29,524 nucleotides of DNA from a virus (Duplodnaviria > Heunggongvirae > Uroviricota > Caudoviricetes). The position numbers were made by a program, and so were the translations under genes. Below, one piece after another: positions 3,108 to 14,655 of this stretch. The stretch lies in the IMG/VR virus record IMGVR_UViG_2693429557_000011, one strand, 5' to 3'. Each line of letters opens with the position of its first letter. The stretch's first letter is position 1. The notes under the pieces were generated by a model. It saw only the letters and a list, made by a program, of their open reading frames with translations, ran no database searches and was not told the DNA's origin.

Positions 3108-3662
3108 TCAGCCAACAAATTTAGCAACAAATACAGCAACCGCCGCTGTGAAAATGGTTGTGCACACTGGCACAATAATGCCACTCCAACGCCACTTCGT
3201 ATTATCATCAACCTTGTCAAACCGCCGATTCATCTCATCCATAATCTTGTCAAAGCGTTTATCCATCGCTTCGGTAAGCTCACCCTTCAGGCTGTTAATG
3301 TCTGATTTGAGCTGCTCTTTCAGGTTAGCTGTATCAGATTTAAGCTCACCTTTCAGATTCGCAATATCGCATTCAAGATCACCTTTCAGATGTGCTATGT
3401 CTGCTTTGAGTTCACCTTTCACCTCACCAACATCGGCTTTAGTTGAGAGGTTTGTAGTGCGTTCAGCAAGCGTCGCAAGGTCGTTTCTTGTTAGCGATAA
3501 ATCACCTTCGAGCCGCTCAATTCGCCTTTCAAGTTTATCTGACATTCCGCCTCCACTACTGCCGCCATCGCCACCATGATAAAGCACATCACGCTCAGAA
3601 TGCGACACACTACCTGCTGAATTACCGAAAAGATTTCTTGCTACATTACCCATTATCACCAT
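3108..3662 (-). CDS. Coiled-coil, C-terminally membrane-anchored protein with five 11-residue repeats (184 aa as drawn; probably 145 aa from the internal ATG at 3545)
   Basis: The ORF contains five tandem 11-aa repeats (e.g. KGELKADIAHL, KGDLECDIANL, KGELKSDTANL), encoded by 33-bp DNA repeats. The C-terminus WRWSGIIVPVCTTIFTAAVAVFVAKFVG is a single hydrophobic helix. The internal ATG at 3545 has a GGAGG RBS (ggaggcggaATG), whereas the longer start overlaps the upstream gene by 17 nt. Its GC content is low relative to the phage backbone. Confidence 0.7.
   Translation of the reverse strand: MVIMGNVARNLFGNSAGSVSHSERDVLYHGGDGGSSGGGMSDKLERRIERLEGDLSLTRNDLATLAERTTNLSTKADVGEVKGELKADIAHLKGDLECDIANLKGELKSDTANLKEQLKSDINSLKGELTEAMDKRFDKIMDEMNRRFDKVDDNTKWRWSGIIVPVCTTIFTAAVAVFVAKFVG
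3284..3448. repeat. Five imperfect tandem 33-bp repeats (each starting ctttcag on the plus strand) inside the 3108-3662 ORF
   Basis: This is read directly from the sequence, e.g. ctttcaggttagctgtatcagatttaagctcac, ctttcagattcgcaatatcgcattcaagatcac and ctttcagatgtgctatgtctgctttgagttcac. They encode the 11-aa protein repeats. Confidence 0.85.
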
Positions 3663-4146
3663 CCTGCGCTTTGTCTTTCTCCAACCACTTCAGCACCGCA
3701 GACGTACGATAAAGGCTCAGGTAACCACAATTCAGGCAATGCAGCGTGTAATAAGTTTTGCGCATATCAGGTATGCTCTTAACATCACCCAAAAAAGCAT
3801 AAGATACATAATGCTTTATGTTCTCTTTAATTAACTCACTCTGTTCCTCCAGGGGTAGATTGTTAAAATTTTCTGGTTTCTTATTTTTATCCCAGCAAAG
3901 ATCCATACTTTCTGGAACAGATAATCGCGACGATCCACATGAAGGGCAGACACTGGAGACCCCCTTCTCAGACAAGAAACGGAAGAAGATTTCTGGCGTA
4001 ATCTCCATCAGCCGCTCTTTATGTTTTTTGACACGACTCATCGACTTCTTATTGATTTCATCAGCTTCTTCTTTGCATTTATCTTCTATATATTTCGATA
4101 GTAAATAGTCATATAACTCTTTTTTTGTAGGTTTTTTTATTTCCAT
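3646..4146 (-). CDS. Hypothetical zinc-binding protein (166 aa), very AT-rich
   Basis: Two CxxCG motifs (CPSCG and CLNCG) about 70 residues apart are compatible with a four-Cys zinc site, and the N-terminus is K/E-rich. The start ATG lies 2 nt after the int stop codon, with a GGGAGG RBS inside the int 3' end, so it is translationally coupled to int. GC is about 35 percent versus about 52 percent for the phage backbone. Confidence 0.75.
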   Translation of the reverse strand: MEIKKPTKKELYDYLLSKYIEDKCKEEADEINKKSMSRVKKHKERLMEITPEIFFRFLSEKGVSSVCPSCGSSRLSVPESMDLCWDKNKKPENFNNLPLEEQSELIKENIKHYVSYAFLGDVKSIPDMRKTYYTLHCLNCGYLSLYRTSAVLKWLEKDKAQDGDNG

Positions 4147-4148
4147 AG

Positions 4149-5126
4149 TTACATTCCTCCCAAGGGATTAAACCTCACCGCATCCTGCAAGTAATCCGGC
4201 GCAAGATGGGCATAAATCATCGTTGTCTGAATCTTTGCGTGCCCCAGAATTTTCTGGAGCGTCAGAATATTGCCGCCGTTCATCATGAAATGACTGGCGA
4301 AGGTGTGGCGCAGCGCATGAACAGCCTGGCCGTCAGGAACATCAGGTGCGACCGTTTTGATGACATCGCGAACCAATGAATAATCCAGCGTCGGAAACAC
4401 CAGTTTCCCGCCCCGTTTTTTGATCTTTTCAAACAGGCTTTCAGAAATAGGAACGGTACGGTTTTTGCTGTTCTTCGTTTTTGAAAAAGTGATTCGACAA
4501 TGAAGAACACGGCGCTGCTCCAGTGCCGCTACCTCGCCCCATCGCGCCCCGGTCGACAGAAGGATTTCGACGGCCAGCCGTTCATCGGGATTTTCAGCCA
4601 GTGCATCCAGCAACTGAACACATTCAGACTTACTCAGATATCCCATTTCACGCTCGTTAACCTTCATTCCTTTAAGGCCTTGAACGGGGTTATCGTTAAG
4701 AAAATGGCCGGATGAGATGAGTGCGGTAAACATCGCGCTTAACGCCCCAATCTCTCGATTTATGGTGCTGGGCTGTATCCCCTGCTCTATCCTGGACACA
4801 CGTAGCTCGGTGAGCATCGTTGTATTAAGTTTATGCACGCACGGGTCATCCATTGCCTCACTCAAGCGCAGCAATTTAAGGCGCGTGTTATGCCCTGACT
4901 TCATTAGCTGGCCGTGGTATTTCCACCACAAGTCAATAAGCACTGACAGCGGACGGCGATCAATGGAGTTTCCTTTCCACTCATTGTTATGCTGTTGCGC
5001 CAGCACCCACCGCTCATATAAAACTGCATCCGATTTCGTTTTAAATTTTTTGCGAATGCGTTTGCCTTTACGCCCCTCAGGACGCATGTCAAGAAGATAC
5101 CCTCCCGGAATTGATTTTATGCTCAT
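4149..5126 (-). CDS. int: P2-type tyrosine integrase (about 325 aa, starting at the internal Met MSIKSIPGGY)
   Basis: The sequence aligns along its length with my recall of P2 Int (MAIKKLDDGRYEVDIRPTGRNGKRIRRKF vs MSIKSIPGGYLLDMRPEGRKGKRIRKKF). The catalytic region carries ARWGE, HALRH and a Y in MIYAHL. The six-frame ORF extends to 5276, but the homology starts at 5126. Confidence 0.9.
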   Translation of the reverse strand: MSIKSIPGGYLLDMRPEGRKGKRIRKKFKTKSDAVLYERWVLAQQHNNEWKGNSIDRRPLSVLIDLWWKYHGQLMKSGHNTRLKLLRLSEAMDDPCVHKLNTTMLTELRVSRIEQGIQPSTINREIGALSAMFTALISSGHFLNDNPVQGLKGMKVNEREMGYLSKSECVQLLDALAENPDERLAVEILLSTGARWGEVAALEQRRVLHCRITFSKTKNSKNRTVPISESLFEKIKKRGGKLVFPTLDYSLVRDVIKTVAPDVPDGQAVHALRHTFASHFMMNGGNILTLQKILGHAKIQTTMIYAHLAPDYLQDAVRFNPLGGM

Positions 5127-5175
5127 TCGTGAAGCCCCAGCGTTACAAGACCACCATGCCCCCAGCGTTCCATGA

Positions 5176-5487
5176 TTAGCCGGGCTGTGTGCCAGTCTTG
5201 CGGGATTTTTGAGAAGACGATGTGTTTTCTGGCCCATCAGGGGAGAGAGAAGGACTGATCTGCCCAGCAGCCTCATTTGTTTCGTTACTCATCAACCACG
5301 TAGTGTATTTTTTAAATTCCGGGTGCATTGTGATTTTCAGTAAAACCTCCGTTCCCACACCTCGAATACCAGTCTCGTATTGCTTAACCGTACCAACCGC
5401 AATACCTATTGAATCCGCGAACTTTGCCTGACTAAGCCCCTCAGATTCTCGAATTGCTTTTAGCTTCTTTGATATCTCTATTGACAT
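5176..5487 (-). CDS. C: P2 C-type immunity repressor (103 aa, start MSIEISKK)
   Basis: An HTH_XRE-like N-terminus is present, and the C-terminal part (HPEFKKYTTWLMSNE..AGQISPSL) resembles P2 C as recalled (QFTKYTLWFMTNQ..SGQIAPAL). It sits directly upstream of int on the same strand, divergent from cox. Confidence 0.8.
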   Translation of the reverse strand: MSIEISKKLKAIRESEGLSQAKFADSIGIAVGTVKQYETGIRGVGTEVLLKITMHPEFKKYTTWLMSNETNEAAGQISPSLSPDGPENTSSSQKSRKTGTQPG

Positions 5488-7921: not shown

Positions 7922-10744
7922 ATGACGGCAGAGTACATCAGGGACTGGCAACAACCGCGCCACGCAGTGGGGCGTGAAGGAACGGGGATCCCCGCTCCTG
8001 AATCCGCGCTTTCCTCCTGGCTGGATGCCCACCGGGCAGAGAACGAGCGCCGCCAGGAAATGGCTGATGCGGCGTTCTCCGCCACGCCACTGGGCAACCT
8101 GATTAATAAAAGCCTGGACGCACAGGAAAAACAGGACAAAACCATCACACTGGCAGGAGACGCCAGAAAACAGGCACGCGGCGCGGTGGATGAAGCCATG
8201 GCCTCGCTGCGCCTGCTGCCGTCCTATCTGCGCGATCCGCTTATTCGCCACCTCTCCTTCCTGCGCAAAAAACAGGAAGCCGATCGCCGGAAAGGCAAAA
8301 AGAGCTGGCAGGCGGAACGCTATGCACGCGGAACCCTGCGCAAAATATTCGAACGTCTGGATCGCACTGACGGACACTGGCTGACACCGGGTTATCGCTC
8401 CCTTGCCGGACGTGAACGCCTGGACGATTTGCTTTACCTGCCGCAACTCAACAAACACCAGATACAGACGCTGGCCACCATGACGGCGGCGATGTTCAGC
8501 AGCACCTTCGAAAAACTCTGCGATGGTTTTGGCGCGACTGATGGCGAGCTGACCATGGATGTAACGCTGAAGGCGTATCAGATGCTGGCCCGCATGGCGT
8601 TACACTTACACGCCATGCCTCCGCATTATGACGCACTGACAACAGACAAAGACCGGAGGCACGAACCGGACACAGAACTGCTGCCGGGCGCAATCCTTCG
8701 CCTGACCTGTGCGGAATGGTGGAAACGCAAACTGTGGCTGTTACGTTGCGAGTGGAGAGAAGAACAACTTCGCGCCGCCTGTCTGGTTTCCAGAAAAACA
8801 TCGCCCTATCTGAGCCAGGACGCGTTAAGCGAGTTTCGCGCACAGCGCGAGAAAACACGCGATTTCCTGAAAAGTTTCATGCTGGAAAATGAAGACGGGT
8901 TCACGATTGATCTCGAGACGGTGTATTACGCGGGAGTAAGTAACCCGGTTCACCGTAAGGCAGAAATGATGGCCACCATGAAGGGGCTGGAACTTCTGGC
9001 CGAAGCCCGTGGCGACAAAGCGGTGTTTCTGACTGTCACCTGCCCGTCAAAATACCACGCCACAACGGAGAACGGTCATCCGAATCCCAAATGGAACGGG
9101 GCCACAATGCGCGACTCCAGCGATTACCTGGTTAACACGTTTTTTGCGACGGTCCGCAAAAAACTGAACCGCGACGGCCTGCGCTGGTATGGCATCCGCA
9201 CGGCGGAGCCTCACCATGACGGCACCGTGCACTGGCATATGATGGTCTTTGCTCATCCGGAAGAAATCGACACCATTGTGTCCCACACCCGCGATATTGC
9301 CATTCAGGAAGATCGTCACGAGCTGGGCGATGACATAACTCCGCGCTTTAAGGCGGAGTATGTAGACGGCTCAAAAGGCACGCCAACCAGCTACATCGCC
9401 ACCTACATCGGGAAAAACCTGGACAGCCGCGCCGTGGATGGCATCGACCCGAAAACGGGCAAGCCACGCGTTGACCACGAAACCGGAAAATCAATGGCCG
9501 AGAGCGTGGAACGCGCCATCGGCTGGGCGCGCCTTCACCGGGTCCGCCAGTTCCAGTTCTTTGGCATCCCCTCCCGCCAGGTATGGCGTGAACTGCGCCG
9601 CCTTGCCAGCCAGATGGCACGCAACCCGGAAGGCCCGCAACGGCTGAAGGATGACGCAATGGATGCGGTTCTTGCCGCCGCTGATGCCGGATGTTTTGCC
9701 ACCTACATAGAGAAACAGGGCGGCGTACTTGTTCCACGCAAAGACTACCTGATTCGCACCGCCTACGACCTCGCCGATGAGCTGAACGATTACGGCGAAC
9801 AGAGCGTACAGATTTACGGGATCTGGTCACCACTCATCGGGGAATCCTCCCGTGTGTGCACGCATCCGGATAACTGGAAGCTGGTAAGACGCAAACCGGA
9901 AGCGGAAGACAGCGCCCGCGAAAATGGTTTTGACCTTCAGGGCGGCCCTGCCGCCCCTTGGACTCGTGGCAATAACTGTCCCCGTGTACAGGAAACGGAC
10001 AACAACGGGACAGAACAGCCGGAAGAACGGCCAGCACCGTGGCCGCAGCTCCCTGACGGCGTTGATGTGGATGAATGGATGCGCTCACTGAAACGGCACG
10101 AACGCCGGGCGCTGATGCGTTCGCTTCGTGACAAACAGGCAAAAAACAGCAGTGATGAAATGCAGAGCTGGACACAGAGCCGCAAACAGCAGCGGCCTTT
10201 GCCTGATAACCACGAATTACTCGCTAAAGAATGGCGGGAGTCTGCTGAATCTCTCGGCCTGCATATCGGTGAACAACAGATGCAGCACCTGTTACGGGGC
10301 GGCAGTCTGTACGTTGACGGCAGCATCATTGCACCGCAGGGATTTGAAATTGTACGCAAACCGGATACCCGCCCGGACAGCCGAATCACGCAGCTCTGGC
10401 AGCGCCTGAGCCGTAATCATGGCGTAAGCAGCACGGAGATCCGCCATAACCCGGTCGCCAGCTATCTGACACAGCTGGGGGCATCAGACCCTGAAGCCGC
10501 CGCACGCCTGGCATCCACACTTCAGCAGGACCAGAACACCATGAAAACACCCGTTACCGTGCTTTCTGACATGCTGCGCGCCATCCGCGACGCAGAGCAC
10601 GCACAGAGAATCAGTGAAACCACTGAACGCGCCCGCCGCAAAGCAGACCTGCTGCGGGGTGGCCTGACCAGTGGAAACAAAAAACAGACAGAAACGGGAC
10701 TCACGAATCCCGTAAATGAGCAAAAAACGCGCAGCGATATATGA
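7922..10744 (+). CDS. A: P2 A-type rolling-circle replication initiator (HUH endonuclease), 940 aa
   Basis: The HUH motif VHWHMMVFAHPEE is present, the protein is large, and it occupies the position of gene A in P2-like genomes. The C-terminal ~250 aa are R/Q/E-rich low complexity, and the protein is longer than my recollection of P2 A (~760 aa). Confidence 0.85.
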   Translation: MTAEYIRDWQQPRHAVGREGTGIPAPESALSSWLDAHRAENERRQEMADAAFSATPLGNLINKSLDAQEKQDKTITLAGDARKQARGAVDEAMASLRLLPSYLRDPLIRHLSFLRKKQEADRRKGKKSWQAERYARGTLRKIFERLDRTDGHWLTPGYRSLAGRERLDDLLYLPQLNKHQIQTLATMTAAMFSSTFEKLCDGFGATDGELTMDVTLKAYQMLARMALHLHAMPPHYDALTTDKDRRHEPDTELLPGAILRLTCAEWWKRKLWLLRCEWREEQLRAACLVSRKTSPYLSQDALSEFRAQREKTRDFLKSFMLENEDGFTIDLETVYYAGVSNPVHRKAEMMATMKGLELLAEARGDKAVFLTVTCPSKYHATTENGHPNPKWNGATMRDSSDYLVNTFFATVRKKLNRDGLRWYGIRTAEPHHDGTVHWHMMVFAHPEEIDTIVSHTRDIAIQEDRHELGDDITPRFKAEYVDGSKGTPTSYIATYIGKNLDSRAVDGIDPKTGKPRVDHETGKSMAESVERAIGWARLHRVRQFQFFGIPSRQVWRELRRLASQMARNPEGPQRLKDDAMDAVLAAADAGCFATYIEKQGGVLVPRKDYLIRTAYDLADELNDYGEQSVQIYGIWSPLIGESSRVCTHPDNWKLVRRKPEAEDSARENGFDLQGGPAAPWTRGNNCPRVQETDNNGTEQPEERPAPWPQLPDGVDVDEWMRSLKRHERRALMRSLRDKQAKNSSDEMQSWTQSRKQQRPLPDNHELLAKEWRESAESLGLHIGEQQMQHLLRGGSLYVDGSIIAPQGFEIVRKPDTRPDSRITQLWQRLSRNHGVSSTEIRHNPVASYLTQLGASDPEAAARLASTLQQDQNTMKTPVTVLSDMLRAIRDAEHAQRISETTERARRKADLLRGGLTSGNKKQTETGLTNPVNEQKTRSDI

Positions 10745-10794
10745 AGCGCGCACAAAACAGGCAAAAACGGGATTTCAGAATCCCGTAAACGATT
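10686..10794. promoter_or_regulatory. Two ~40-bp direct repeats, each containing a 6-bp-arm inverted repeat (acggga-N8-tcccgt), at the end of A and upstream of parM
   Basis: Copy 1 is aaaacagacagaaacgggactcacgaatcccgtaaatgag (10686-10720). Copy 2 is acaaaacaggcaaaaacgggatttcagaatcccgtaaacgatt (10752-10794). This is a candidate centromere/operator for the downstream ParR-like protein. Confidence 0.5.
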
Positions 10795-10820
10795 AATTAA
10801 TCAACATAAGGAAAAGCGAC

Positions 10821-11780
10821 ATGAAAATTTGTATCGACGACGGCTCCACCAACATCAAGCTGGCATGGACTGAGAACGGCGAACGCCGCAACGCCATCAG
10901 CCCGAACAGCTTCAAGTCGGAATGGTCTGCGCCGTTCGGTGGCATGCAGCCCGCGAACTACATGCTTGATGGCGTGCGCTATGGTTTTGATCCGGTCAGC
11001 GATCGCTTTGTCCAGACAACCGACACGCAATACCAGTACAGCGATGTAAATGTCATTGCCATTCATCACGCGCTGGTCAAATCAGGCATCACGCCACAGG
11101 AGGTGGATGTGGTTGTCACCCTGCCACTGAGCGAGTATTTCGACACAAACGCACAGCCGGACATGGCCAACATCAACCGCAAAAAAGCGAACGTTATGCG
11201 CCCGGTGGAGTACCAGAACGGCGAAGCATTCACTATCCGTAACGTGCGGGTTATGCCTGAATCCATTCCGGCTGGCTTTAAGGCACTGGCTGACATGAGT
11301 CCGTTTGAATCCCTGCTGATTGTGGATTTGGGCGGAACCACGCTGGATGTGGCAAAGGTTCAGGGGCAACTGGCAGGTATCAGCCAGGTGTTTTGCGATC
11401 CACACGTAGGCGTTTCTCTGATGGCCGATGCCGTACTGTCGGTGATGGCCACTAACGGTATGCGCACCAGTCACCACATCGCCAATACCATTATCGAACA
11501 TCGCCATGATGAAGCCTGGCTGCGCCAGCACATCCACAATGACGCGCATTACGCCAGCCTGATGGCGGTTATTCGTGAAAAGGAAGAAACACTGAAACAA
11601 CGCGTGATCCGCGCGCTGGCGGGTTTTTCGGGTTACGGGCGGGTGATGGTTGTCGGTGGAGGGGCGGAGATTGTGGCACCCGCTATCCGCGAAGCCTGCG
11701 GAGTTAATGCGACTTTCATCGCGGACGGGGTGCCACAGTTTGCTCTGGTTAATGGGCTGTACGCAATGGACAAGGAGTAA
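10821..11780 (+). CDS. parM: ParM/StbA-family actin-like segregation ATPase (319 aa)
   Basis: The N-terminus MKICIDDGSTNIKLAW matches my recall of the plasmid R1 ParM (StbA) N-terminus MLVFIDDGSTNIKLQW. Further actin-fold motifs LIVDLGGTTLDV and VMVVGGGAEIV are present, and the length matches ParM (~320 aa). Confidence 0.85.
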   Translation: MKICIDDGSTNIKLAWTENGERRNAISPNSFKSEWSAPFGGMQPANYMLDGVRYGFDPVSDRFVQTTDTQYQYSDVNVIAIHHALVKSGITPQEVDVVVTLPLSEYFDTNAQPDMANINRKKANVMRPVEYQNGEAFTIRNVRVMPESIPAGFKALADMSPFESLLIVDLGGTTLDVAKVQGQLAGISQVFCDPHVGVSLMADAVLSVMATNGMRTSHHIANTIIEHRHDEAWLRQHIHNDAHYASLMAVIREKEETLKQRVIRALAGFSGYGRVMVVGGGAEIVAPAIREACGVNATFIADGVPQFALVNGLYAMDKE

Positions 11781-11784
11781 ACCA

Positions 11785-12096
11785 ATGACGACACCAACCA
11801 GACGGATAAGTTTCTATCTGAAGCCTGCGGCCGTCAAGAACGAAAGCGAAGCATGCGCCTGGCTGGGCAGCCTTACACCAGAAGCCCGCAAAAGCGGCCA
11901 ACGCGTGGCTTTTCTGGCCGGGCTGGCACTTCTGAAAATGAATCCAGCAGAGGCTTACCGACTGGCTGCATGGGCTGACGATGAGGCGTTATCGGTGACA
12001 CAAACCAGGACAGAACGCCCCGTGCCACAGCCAGTACCAACCGCACAGATAACCAGTCAGATAGCAGGGAATATCCGGGCATTATTTCCTGAATGA
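11785..12096 (+). CDS. parR: ParR-like centromere-binding adaptor (103 aa, start MTTPTRRISF)
   Basis: It lies 4 nt after the parM stop with an AAGGAG RBS. Segments RISFYLKP, RVAFLAGLALLKMNP and IRALFPE resemble R1 ParR as recalled (RTIAFKLNP, RAALTAGLALYRQDP, ILRSLFPKE), and the gene order parM-parR matches R1. Confidence 0.65.
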   Translation: MTTPTRRISFYLKPAAVKNESEACAWLGSLTPEARKSGQRVAFLAGLALLKMNPAEAYRLAAWADDEALSVTQTRTERPVPQPVPTAQITSQIAGNIRALFPE

Positions 12097-12156
12097 CGAA
12101 TTTGACGGCTTTTAATTTTATCGGGGTGCACTGTCGCCCCGCACGAGGAAAACACG

Positions 12157-12681
12157 ATGAAAAAATACGAATACATGCTAATGAAAGAAGCACTGCGGGC
12201 TGGTCTGGCTCCCTGTCCTGTATCCGTAGAAGCTGTTGTTGGGAACACGATTTTCCGAACGCTGCGAAATCGCGTATCCGTGAAGATGGTTCACCAACCA
12301 CCCAAATCTACCAGCATGATCTATCTGCCGCTGCCCGAGGCTATCAAACTTATGCGTTCGCTGAAATTTGCGATTTGGATGCAGACACAAATCAACAAAG
12401 CGGTGCAAAACACCTTCGTTAAGAGACTAATACCGGAGCTTGCTGCCAGATGTGCAAAATGTACCAGACCCGCACTTCAATTTGATCTGTCATTGATTCA
12501 ACAAGCTACGGAGGCAGAACTGTACCGCCTGTCACCTATCCGTGATGCTCACACGGAAGCATCAGAAATGTTCCGGCTCATGTTTCAATTTAATTTTGCC
12601 GTTCGACGCACACGCGTTCAGGTCAATCGCATGATGCAGGAGCAGGAAGAGTTAACACAGTACAAAGGGGGCAGCCAGTGA
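12157..12681 (+). CDS. Hypothetical protein (174 aa), first gene of the hotspot cargo cassette
   Basis: The ORF has a GAGGA RBS. It is a basic protein with no motif I recognise. Its stop overlaps the next start (GTGA). Confidence 0.6.
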   Translation: MKKYEYMLMKEALRAGLAPCPVSVEAVVGNTIFRTLRNRVSVKMVHQPPKSTSMIYLPLPEAIKLMRSLKFAIWMQTQINKAVQNTFVKRLIPELAARCAKCTRPALQFDLSLIQQATEAELYRLSPIRDAHTEASEMFRLMFQFNFAVRRTRVQVNRMMQEQEELTQYKGGSQ

Positions 12682-12917
12682 GTAATTCAGCACGACTACA
12701 GCTTGGTTTTTCACCGCTATCAAAAACCATCGTATTGGCAAAAATGCGTGACTTAGGAGACGGAACAAAACGCCGCGTAGGAAATGATCGCGGTCGCGAT
12801 GTAACCAACGAGGCCGCTCAACTCGTTTGGCATCTAGTCATGGCAGAAGGCGGTGAAATTAATTGGGAGCTGGATGATGGTTCTCGTATGATTTTGAGGG
12901 CCGAGAAGAGTAAATAG
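12678..12917 (+). CDS. Hypothetical protein (79 aa), translationally coupled to the 174-aa gene
   Basis: A GTG start overlaps the upstream TGA stop. The protein is acidic and contains a W-rich segment EAAQLVWHLVMAEGGEINWELDDGS. Confidence 0.5.
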   Translation: MSNSARLQLGFSPLSKTIVLAKMRDLGDGTKRRVGNDRGRDVTNEAAQLVWHLVMAEGGEINWELDDGSRMILRAEKSK

Positions 12918-12931
12918 CTCAAGGGGGATTA

Positions 12932-13117
12932 ATGCTAAATGATGATGAAGAAGAGCTGCTTATGCAGGAATGGTCGCTCGGTGATTATGATAATGGTGAA
13001 AATGGGTGCCCGCATTGTGGCCGTTATCGTTTATGTATCTGCCAGAATGGAAAACACAGATGTGAAAAGTGCAATTGGTCTCCGGAACTTAATGACTACG
13101 TGCCGATCGAGTGGTAG
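12932..13117 (+). CDS. Small Cys-rich zinc-ribbon protein (61 aa)
   Basis: CPHCGRYRLCICQNGKHRCEKC gives six Cys residues, including two CxxC pairs 14 residues apart. An AAGGGGGA RBS is present. It is the last gene before the non-coding cos region. Confidence 0.5.
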   Translation: MLNDDEEELLMQEWSLGDYDNGENGCPHCGRYRLCICQNGKHRCEKCNWSPELNDYVPIEW

Positions 13118-13608
13118 AGGTAAGTCACACTAGGTGTTTTTTAGTTGATTTTATAAATGCACAATAGTGCACAAATTTGCACAATTTTTTTGAACGACTT
13201 TTTGCCCTTCCGGCCCGCGTGGCGGCTGGATCCGTCAAGGATCCGTGCATGCACAAAAAAACGCGTTTTTTCTGCGCGCAGGTGACGGGGGAACAGCCCG
13301 CGTTTCAGGGGGTAAATAGCATTCCCTGAACGATGTCGCAGAGATACAACAGAATGGCTGTATTTCTCACGCTGAGCGTGAAAAAGACGTGAGGGCTTTT
13401 GATTTGATGGGGTGAAAGGTAAGGCCGTCAAAATCGCACTGAGACGGCGAGAATATGCAGTCAACGAGGTGGGATTGCGTAAGAGTCTGACTGTCGATGA
13501 TGGCAATCAGCAGGAAAGCGTCGTGAAATTATCTGACTGATACAGGAGCTGGAGAGTCGGGGCATAAATTTTTTATGCCCCGGCGAAGCAGCAGACAAGC
13601 GAAGCGCG
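13118..13608. other. Non-coding region expected to contain the phage cos site (inferred by synteny)
   Basis: This 490-bp gap sits between the hotspot genes and portal Q, where P2-like phages have cos. It contains GC-rich candidate motifs gcgtggcgg (13218) and gacgggggaacagc (13281) resembling the 186/P2 cohesive ends as recalled. A direct repeat ggatccgt-caag-gatccgt (13229) and a perfect palindrome ggggcataaa-ttt-tttatgcccc (13557-13582) are also present. Confidence 0.4.
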
Positions 13609-14655
13609 TCAGGATGTGGGCTGGGTGTCTAACAGTGCGTAAGGGTTAAAGCGGATCACCTCTTCGCCAAGCCAGTCATTGATGTGCTTCATGGCCTCCA
13701 TGACGGGCATCAGCTCGTTAATTGCGTAAACCCGCGCGGCCTTCTCCACATCACCAAACGCACTTTTTTCGCCCGGCATCGCCCCCATCAGTTGCGGCGG
13801 AACGCGGTGCGCAGCCAGCACATCATCACGGGATGCCGCCTTAACATTCATGAACTCATCCTTTGCGGTGATCTGCTGGAACGGCAAAATTTGCACCCCC
13901 TCTTTGCCCCCGTTGGGCGCATGAATGAGCACGTTTTTAAACGCACCACCACCACGTGCCCCCTGTAGCGTTTCTTTCAGGGAGTCCATGCTTTCGCGGT
14001 TTACCTGCGCTGCACCGATGTAGATGATGCACCCGGCGTGGGATCCGTTGTCGTAGTACAGTTTTCTGAACATGTCCGCCGAATGAGAAAGGCTGGCCGA
14101 GAGTAATGCGCCAAGATATTCCGGCATGCCGTAGATTTCCTGGTTAATATCCGGATTCATCAGGTGGCACACTTTGCCAGGACGAAACTGAAACGCATCC
14201 TTGCCATCCTGCACATACCACCATGATTCAAGATCGCTTCCGCGTCGCATGTATTTCGCCAGGGCGTGCCGTAATTTAAGCGGTTCGCCGAGCATATTGC
14301 TCCGAAGCTCAAGGAATGCGTTACCGAACACAAACCAGTCCAGCGCCAGCGCCGAGAAATCCTGCCGGGAAAGCAGCGGGTGCGGAATATAGCAGCCGAG
14401 CAATACATTGCGCTTAAAGTAAAGCGCAGACTGATGCCAGGACGTTTGCCGGGCAGCTCTTGCCAGACCGTACCAGTCCACCGGGGTTTCATACCACCGC
14501 CCGTTATCAGCACAGTACATATTGTCCAGCAGGTCATGCCCGGTCAGGCGGTAAGGACCATCAAATGTGAATGCACTGAGCGACGATTCTTTCCTGAGCG
14601 CATCAGCGAGATCAATGCGTGAACTCATGCGCACTTTTTTATTTTTTCTGCTCAT
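13609..14655 (-). CDS. Q: Portal protein (P2 Q-like, 348 aa)
   Basis: The size matches, it is co-oriented and overlaps terminase P (ATGA), and it is divergent from the O-N-M-L block exactly as in P2. Confidence 0.9.
   Translation of the reverse strand: MSRKNKKVRMSSRIDLADALRKESSLSAFTFDGPYRLTGHDLLDNMYCADNGRWYETPVDWYGLARAARQTSWHQSALYFKRNVLLGCYIPHPLLSRQDFSALALDWFVFGNAFLELRSNMLGEPLKLRHALAKYMRRGSDLESWWYVQDGKDAFQFRPGKVCHLMNPDINQEIYGMPEYLGALLSASLSHSADMFRKLYYDNGSHAGCIIYIGAAQVNRESMDSLKETLQGARGGGAFKNVLIHAPNGGKEGVQILPFQQITAKDEFMNVKAASRDDVLAAHRVPPQLMGAMPGEKSAFGDVEKAARVYAINELMPVMEAMKHINDWLGEEVIRFNPYALLDTQPTS

Follow-up and report, generated by a model that had tools for sequence, protein, structure and literature searches.

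A ParMRC-like partition cassette in P88-like prophages of Escherichia coli

Why should a phage that resides in the chromosome carry a machine for segregating plasmids? The question is raised by IMG/VR virus record IMGVR_UViG_2693429557_000011, a DNA stretch of 29,524 nt (the window, hereafter) with host genes and an integrated P2-like prophage. At positions 10821-12096, the prophage carries parM and parR, two genes resembling the actin-type partition operon of plasmid R1. An initial annotation of the sequence had recognised the pair and viewed it as cargo filling the tin/old slot of P2. It offered three suggestions for its presence: maintenance as an episome, exclusion of plasmids, or positioning of replicating phage DNA. 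It also proposed that P2-like phages be searched for the same cassette. The cassette was found, already annotated, in Escherichia phage P88, Citrobacter phage phiSM and other Xuanwuvirus. In P88 and phiSM, the genes are named ParM and partition protein. The module is thus already known, and our finding is a confirmation of this annotation, not a discovery. Added here are its near lineage-core status, the purifying selection on parM, the synteny in divergent prophages, a candidate centromere (parC) and counts of its chromosomal locations. The cassette may represent a type II (ParMRC-like) segrosome, complete and kept by selection, that belongs to the P88-like (Xuanwuvirus) lineage and acts on transient circular phage DNA. 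From analogy and gene context, we judge the chances of this reading to be evenly balanced.

The parMR genes, their distribution and relatives

The first gene, parM (10821-11780, + strand), encodes a 319-aa actin-fold ATPase of the R1 ParM/StbA family, with the protein start MKICIDDGSTNIKLAW. The protein covers two Pfam domains at full length, StbA_N (PF06406, E = 2.7e-82) and the ParM C-terminal domain (PF21523, E = 1.3e-68). It also matched PHROG 691 'partition protein' (3.4e-90) and the solved structure of R1 ParM (1mwk, E = 8.5e-93). The nucleotide-binding motifs IDDGSTNIKL, MPESIPAG, DLGGTTLD and GGGAE are the same in the window ParM and R1 ParM, as revealed by a HMMER alignment. The ParM/StbA assignment and the actin-fold motifs, first read from the letters alone, were borne out by the two domains and the structure match. 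In NCBIfam, ParM had sub-threshold matches only and ParR had no match.

The second gene, parR (11785-12096, + strand), starts 4 nt past the parM stop codon, confirming the R1-like gene order and tight spacing of the initial annotation. Its 103-aa product, previously called ParR-like, is an adaptor of the StbB/ParR family. It matched Pfam Plasmid_stab_B (PF10784, 2e-23) and PHROG 2515 (2.3e-56), and a profile of this protein with its phage and plasmid homologues matched the solved ParR of pB171 (2jd3, 'STBB PROTEIN') at 3.6e-15. The protein is laid out as a presumed DNA-binding part at the N-terminus, a variable linker and a conserved C-terminal NIRALFPE. In alignment, this motif corresponds to the tail of R1 ParR, KKNAMKLIN, and its N96 does not vary among eight phage and plasmid ParRs. 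The R1 tail is said to be the ParM-binding helix, in the structure of Gayathri et al. 2012 (PDB 4a62). A helix was placed at residues 86-100 of the window ParR in a low-confidence AlphaFold2 model. This monomer model, based on an 18-sequence alignment, was too poor to confirm the ribbon-helix-helix fold of a ParR adaptor (pLDDT, the predicted local confidence score, of 58, with the N-terminus and linker below 50), and a Foldseek search with it against the PDB gave nothing below E = 3.8.

Both proteins belong to the same Pfam families as those of R1/R100 ParMRC (StbA/StbB), and both systems have the order repeats, parM, parR, with the two genes adjacent. The window ParM is ~47% identical to R1-type ParM and up to 52% to other plasmid ParMs. 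R1 ParR has 116 aa and is 23% identical to the window ParR. Unlike the R1 system, the cassette lies in an integrating phage and not on a plasmid.

Selection was assessed in 83 related loci, which held 71 distinct parM haplotypes. These had no stop codons and no gaps, their variable sites were distributed over codon positions 1/2/3 as 32/21/146, and the ratio of nonsynonymous to synonymous substitution rates (dN/dS) was 0.05. Hence, parM is under strong purifying selection. Far more diverse was parR, with 50 distinct proteins in at least two allele classes. The N-terminus MTTPTRRISFYLKP, presumably the DNA-reading strand, is identical or nearly so in almost all of these 50 proteins. The C-terminal motif, in the form NI[RQ]A[LF]FP, is retained across 18 alleles, while the linker is hypervariable. 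Conserved ends joined by a hypervariable linker would be the pattern expected of a functional adaptor.

The parR gene is also mosaic. Many related prophages (loci L003-L085) match the window to ~11930 and then continue with another parR 3' half, and parM stays 99-100% identical where this half switches. The synonymous rate (dS) is 0.3-0.5 in parR versus 0.08 in parM. On a 226-kb contig labelled 'Vagococcus sp. WN89Y', a Firmicute (NZ_JBQPOM010000071.1), there is a ParM with 98% identity to that of the E. coli prophage; most likely, this is contamination or a mislabelled assembly.

The cassette lies between gene A (gpA, 7922-10744, + strand), which is directly upstream of parM on the same strand, and the portal gene (13609-14655, - strand). 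This agrees with the earlier placement between gene A and the portal/cos side. The region is ~97% identical at the DNA level to phage P88 (Xuanwuvirus, Peduoviridae) and to phiSM. P88, phiSM and other Xuanwuvirus have essentially the same genes, with ParM identities of 99-100%, and differ only in the cargo after parR. The interval between gpA and gpQ, the portal homologue, is a known hotspot in P2-like phages, and a putative plasmid partitioning system was reported in about one quarter of those from E. coli (Rousset et al. 2022, PMC9122126).

For the E. coli counts, 5426 complete genomes were searched with the stretch from the candidate parC to the end of parMR. The stretch was found in 1307 genomes, about one quarter, and in 1278 of them at ≥80% coverage. 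The P88-type gene A was found at ≥80% coverage in 1319 genomes. Judging by these two numbers, the cassette accompanies this gpA type in ~97% of cases and is close to lineage-core. Its places in the genomes were chromosomal in 1453 of 1455 cases, and the other 2 were on plasmids. Two prophages of one genome can share identical ParM and ParR and near-identical repeats, which is expected if the system is idle while integrated.

The swappable cargo of the hotspot starts after parR, because P88-like phages match the window on either side of 12100-13150 and none matches across. Two divergent prophages fit this boundary. In the variable slot immediately behind parR, a Serratia prophage (L089, 9450-10084) has a HicA/HicB toxin-antitoxin pair and an Enterobacter prophage (L090, 9411-10757) a KAP-family NTPase. 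The view of the cassette itself as swappable cargo in the tin/old slot did not hold. It co-occurs with gpA and occupies the side of the gpA-portal interval nearest gpA, a position also kept in the divergent prophages described below.

A contig scan with a single ParM protein as query returned three near-identical loci; ParMs of more distant prophages were recovered by searching 5.8 billion proteins. Outside the E. coli clade, the closest were from Plesiomonas (63% identity), Hafnia (62%), Serratia (58%) and Enterobacter (54%). All four carriers are P2-like prophages. Their gene order is gpA, zero to two small genes, ParM, a Plasmid_stab_B protein, variable genes and portal. Identity to the window is 30-47% for the portal, 35-43% for the large terminase, 27-28% for the capsid and 29-55% for gpA, and ParM is better conserved than any of these. 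The ParM homologues of ≤52% identity that were inspected are in plasmids, an integrated plasmid and an element like an integrative and conjugative element (ICE). In the latter, on a Dickeya chromosome (CM001975.1; L097, 7001-8373), a ParM/ParR pair with a 49% identical ParM lies with TraG_N, TraU and an integrase. The element has the appearance of an ICE equipped for type II partition and resembles in this the srpMRC system of SXT/R391 elements. In a neighbour-joining tree rooted on R1-type ParM, the E. coli, Hafnia and Plesiomonas ParMs formed a clade in 60 of 60 bootstraps.

Candidate parC repeats and transcription

The repeats that the initial annotation had placed upstream of parM were recovered as two 42-nt direct repeats on the + strand. 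Repeat 1 (10678-10719) lies in the last codons of gene A and contains the palindrome CGGGACTCACGAATCCCG at 10695-10712. Repeat 2 (10751-10792), in the intergenic region between A and parM, contains the palindrome CGGGATTTCAGAATCCCG at 10768-10785. It is spaced 73 bp from repeat 1 and ends ~28 nt ahead of the parM start codon. The consensus palindrome, CGGGAyTnnnnAATCCCG, has exactly two matches in the window and likewise two in a 14.6-kb stretch of P88. Among the 83 related loci, its arms are conserved and its loops variable. The half-site AATCCCGTAAA resembles the R1 parC iteron AACCCATAAAA. We infer that ParR binds the two palindromic repeats, which would make them a candidate minimal parC. 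The arrangement differs from that of R1, which has 2 x 5 direct 11-bp iterons around its promoter.

In the Plesiomonas prophage (L088), two direct repeats with weak palindromy lie 72 bp apart at equivalent positions. The Serratia and Enterobacter prophages have a single long inverted repeat upstream of parM instead.

The repeats could alternatively be terminators or RNA structures that halt leftward (antisense) transcription into gene A, with ParR binding elsewhere or acting only as a regulator. Read on the minus strand, both hairpins (10694-10713 and 10767-10786) have an 8-bp stem followed by T-rich sequence and score as intrinsic terminators. Over 10660-10830, the + strand RNA also folds better than its shuffled versions (z = -3.46). 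Conserved arms with variable loops would also suit a hairpin. However, the window has no minus-strand gene upstream of these hairpins, since the + strand carries parM, parR and the cargo alike. The changes from C to T in the arms (TCCTG) would give A-C mismatches in the minus-strand RNA. Also, the Plesiomonas equivalents keep the 72-bp spacing with weak or broken palindromes, which favours protein binding, and the half-site is similar to R1 iterons. We therefore consider the terminator explanation unlikely.

A consensus scan between gene A and parM, a crude one, predicted no sigma-70 promoter and no + strand terminator. The absence of a predicted promoter of its own is a further difference from the R1 system. 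Since parMR follows A on the same strand, with no promoter or terminator predicted in between, it is most likely co-transcribed with the early (lytic/establishment) operon that ends in A. Early operons of P2 and 186 are off in the repressed lysogen, and parMR would most likely be silent there as well. Transcriptome and proteome papers on the O157 prophage CP-933T held nothing usable on the expression of these genes.

Possible roles of the cassette

In the favoured reading, a partition apparatus would work on phage DNA outside the chromosome. ParR dimers would attach to the candidate parC (10678-10792), the pair of palindromic repeats that directly precedes parM, and the conserved C-terminal helix of ParR would capture the ends of ATP-ParM filaments. 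The growing filaments would then push paired circular phage genomes apart. Because the cassette is probably expressed with the early operon and silent in the lysogen, the likely substrate would be the transient extrachromosomal circles of a P2-type phage after infection or excision. The segrosome would spread these circles through the cell and into both daughters. The payoff could be a higher efficiency of replication or packaging, or a better inheritance before integration. Of the three earlier suggestions, the positioning or segregation of replicating phage DNA is thus the best fit; it is argued from analogy and gene context.

The favoured reading is supported by two systems which act in this way for other integrated elements. 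The best functional analogy is AlpAC of the prophage CGP3 in Corynebacterium glutamicum. Like the window, CGP3 is an integrated prophage encoding an actin-like filament former (AlpC) and a DNA-binding adaptor (AlpA), whose sites (alpS) lie upstream of the operon. Induction of the alp operon follows soon after excision, and the circular DNA of the excised prophage requires AlpAC to replicate efficiently (PMC4446434). The likeness is one of function: AlpC belongs to a different actin-like family, and the host is an actinobacterium. The second system, srpMRC of SXT/R391, is a type II ParM-related system of an ICE which stabilises a transient excised circle replicating by the rolling-circle mode from a relaxase (PMC4489591). 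Its element is usually chromosomal too, and its rolling-circle replication parallels P2 gpA, a rolling-circle initiator. In contrast to the window, srpMRC belongs to an ICE and not a phage, and it is only distantly related to R1 ParMR (PMC4489591), whereas the window proteins are close members of the R1 family.

A broader proposition is held more tentatively. A wide and old P2-like (Peduoviridae) group may have adopted an R1-type segrosome as a lineage-core module, with a two-palindrome centromere overlapping the end of the replication gene and with co-expression with gpA. Its task might be to separate or position monomeric circles, or to carry them into both daughters before integration.

Several points weigh against the favoured reading. 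Partition normally serves low-copy replicons, and the products of lytic rolling-circle replication are numerous. By tblastn of 50,697 phage records, ParM was found in the P88 group and the phage-plasmid D6 alone. Since the other sequenced P2-like phages do without ParM, whatever benefit it brings is non-essential. The candidate parC has two palindromes only, compared with the ten 11-bp direct iterons flanking the promoter in R1, and both of its hairpins have the terminator scores given above. With the promoter scan being crude, an autoregulated promoter active in lysogens may exist. The clade of all 15 phage-context ParMs was recovered in just 55 of 100 bootstraps, so that repeated exchange of ParM between plasmids and phages is possible; a single old capture by phages would be plausible, though not proven. 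Our literature search found no experimental work on the function of parMR in P2-like phages, and no expression, binding or phenotype data for their ParMR.

A dual lifestyle as phage and plasmid has been guessed for these phages in print (Rousset et al. 2022, PMC9122126; Pfeifer et al. 2021, PMC7969092). The cassette would let P88-like phages persist as low-copy plasmids, alternating with integration. P88 was flagged as a possible phage-plasmid in a screen that grouped it in one phage-plasmid community with KS-14, a P2-like phage of Burkholderia (PMC7969092). In PLSDB, the circular record NZ_CP148288.1 (34,461 bp) spans an entire P88-like genome, and int, A, parM and parR are among its genes. 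Yet this record could be an excised replicating phage captured by the assembly, and the remaining PLSDB matches are prophages within large plasmids or unplaced linear fragments. An integrase is present, and the 1453 chromosomal places against 2 on plasmids fit an episome poorly. No plasmid replicon was seen; the only replication gene recognised near the cassette, with Rep families scanned in part of the prophage open reading frames (ORFs), is the lytic rolling-circle gpA. Furthermore, identical par cassettes coexist in one genome, and as plasmids they would be incompatible. Altogether, the episome suggestion is, of the three, the one that agrees least with the distribution data, and we see it as a slim prospect. 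For comparison, D6, a P1-like phage-plasmid, also has a StbA-type partition system, with a ParM homologue of 47.8% identity. Unlike the P88 group, it is a 91-kb element kept as a plasmid, with an obvious need for partition.

The circular record NZ_CP148288.1 (L002), from a cat E. coli isolate, lacks several structural genes in its gene table, e.g. there is a gap at the portal position.

A third explanation, which we regard as improbable, is that of a 'moron' expressed in the lysogen, like tin/old. It would exclude or destabilise plasmids or phages sharing its ParR/parC specificity, or act in another kind of defence. The location in the gpA-gpQ interval, a hotspot for anti-phage systems (PMC9122126), and the diversification of ParR into at least two allele classes are in its favour. 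Against it, the cassette is conserved and not swapped (1278 vs 1319 genomes), and selection on ParM is strongly purifying, not diversifying. The diversity of ParR lies in the linker, with a nearly invariant DNA-reading N-terminus. Plasmid ParMs are ≤52% identical and the plasmid ParRs that were compared 18-26%, so that cross-talk is unlikely. In addition, parMR has no predicted promoter of its own, and PADLOC gave no match for ParM, ParR or the three ORFs downstream. Nothing in the analysis supported the earlier suggestion of plasmid exclusion.

That the cassette is a passively carried remnant of past recombination between plasmid and phage, useful to neither phage nor host, is highly improbable. 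Its closest non-phage relatives are indeed plasmid and ICE ParMs, but parM has a dN/dS of 0.05 and was disrupted in none of the 71 haplotypes. ParR is conserved at the ends that bind ParM and DNA, and the layout is kept across genera despite far more divergent structural genes.

Should the broader proposition prove true, an integrating tailed phage of Gram-negative bacteria would provide the first case in which a type II partition system is demonstrated to serve the infection cycle. For the transient episomal phase, such a segregation role has so far been demonstrated in one actinobacterial prophage and a single family of ICEs. To specialists, the answer to what a plasmid actin machine contributes to an integrating phage would be no great surprise. 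In about a quarter of the complete E. coli genomes, the cassette resides under strong selection inside an integrated prophage, and the phiSM paper counts the gene among the fitness factors (PMC6456863). Both P88 and phiSM can be cultured and induced and have a genetically easy host, and thus offer a simple system for testing actin-like segregation in a transient episomal phase. For annotation, the lesson is that a ParM/ParR match should not be taken as the mark of a plasmid or phage-plasmid contig.

Prophage setting and neighbouring genes

The integrated state proposed in the initial annotation was corroborated by the host genes and the integrase. The first ~3000 nt of the window hold the host genes nlpC, btuD, btuE and btuC, and the prophage is integrated beside btuC. 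Two small genes follow, then the integrase (4149-5276, - strand) and the repressor. The two small genes between btuC and the integrase (3108-4146, - strand) encode a DUF1640 protein and a hypothetical protein, and may be cargo at the attachment-site end. A 19-nt P2 cos sequence had no match in the window at ≤3 mismatches.

Gene A encodes a P2-type rolling-circle replication endonuclease of 940 aa (Pfam Phage_GPA, PF05840, 6.6e-131). Its homologues in other ParMR-carrying prophages have 785-907 aa. Because the alignments with them end at about residue 700-810, the C-terminal part of the window gpA is, on this comparison, lineage-specific; its last codons overlap candidate parC repeat 1. At the far edge of the gpA-gpQ interval, the portal gene product matched Pfam Phage_portal (4.4e-18), and its counterpart in P88 is annotated as portal protein.

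The variable cargo after parR (12157-13117, + strand) consists of three small ORFs, encoding a 174-aa protein, a 79-aa DUF7446 protein and a 61-aa zinc-ribbon-like protein. The 174-aa ORF had no family match in the Pfam, PADLOC and PHROG profile scans of the window ORFs. The DUF7446 ORF (12678-12917) is the sole part of the hotspot cargo with DNA matches in unrelated phages (80-91% identity, window 12663-12908). These included a Yersinia phage, lambdoid phages and the ~108-kb phage records CMS-2020a and PhiR41_1. Judging from the reach of these matches, the DUF7446 gene is widely shuttled among phages.

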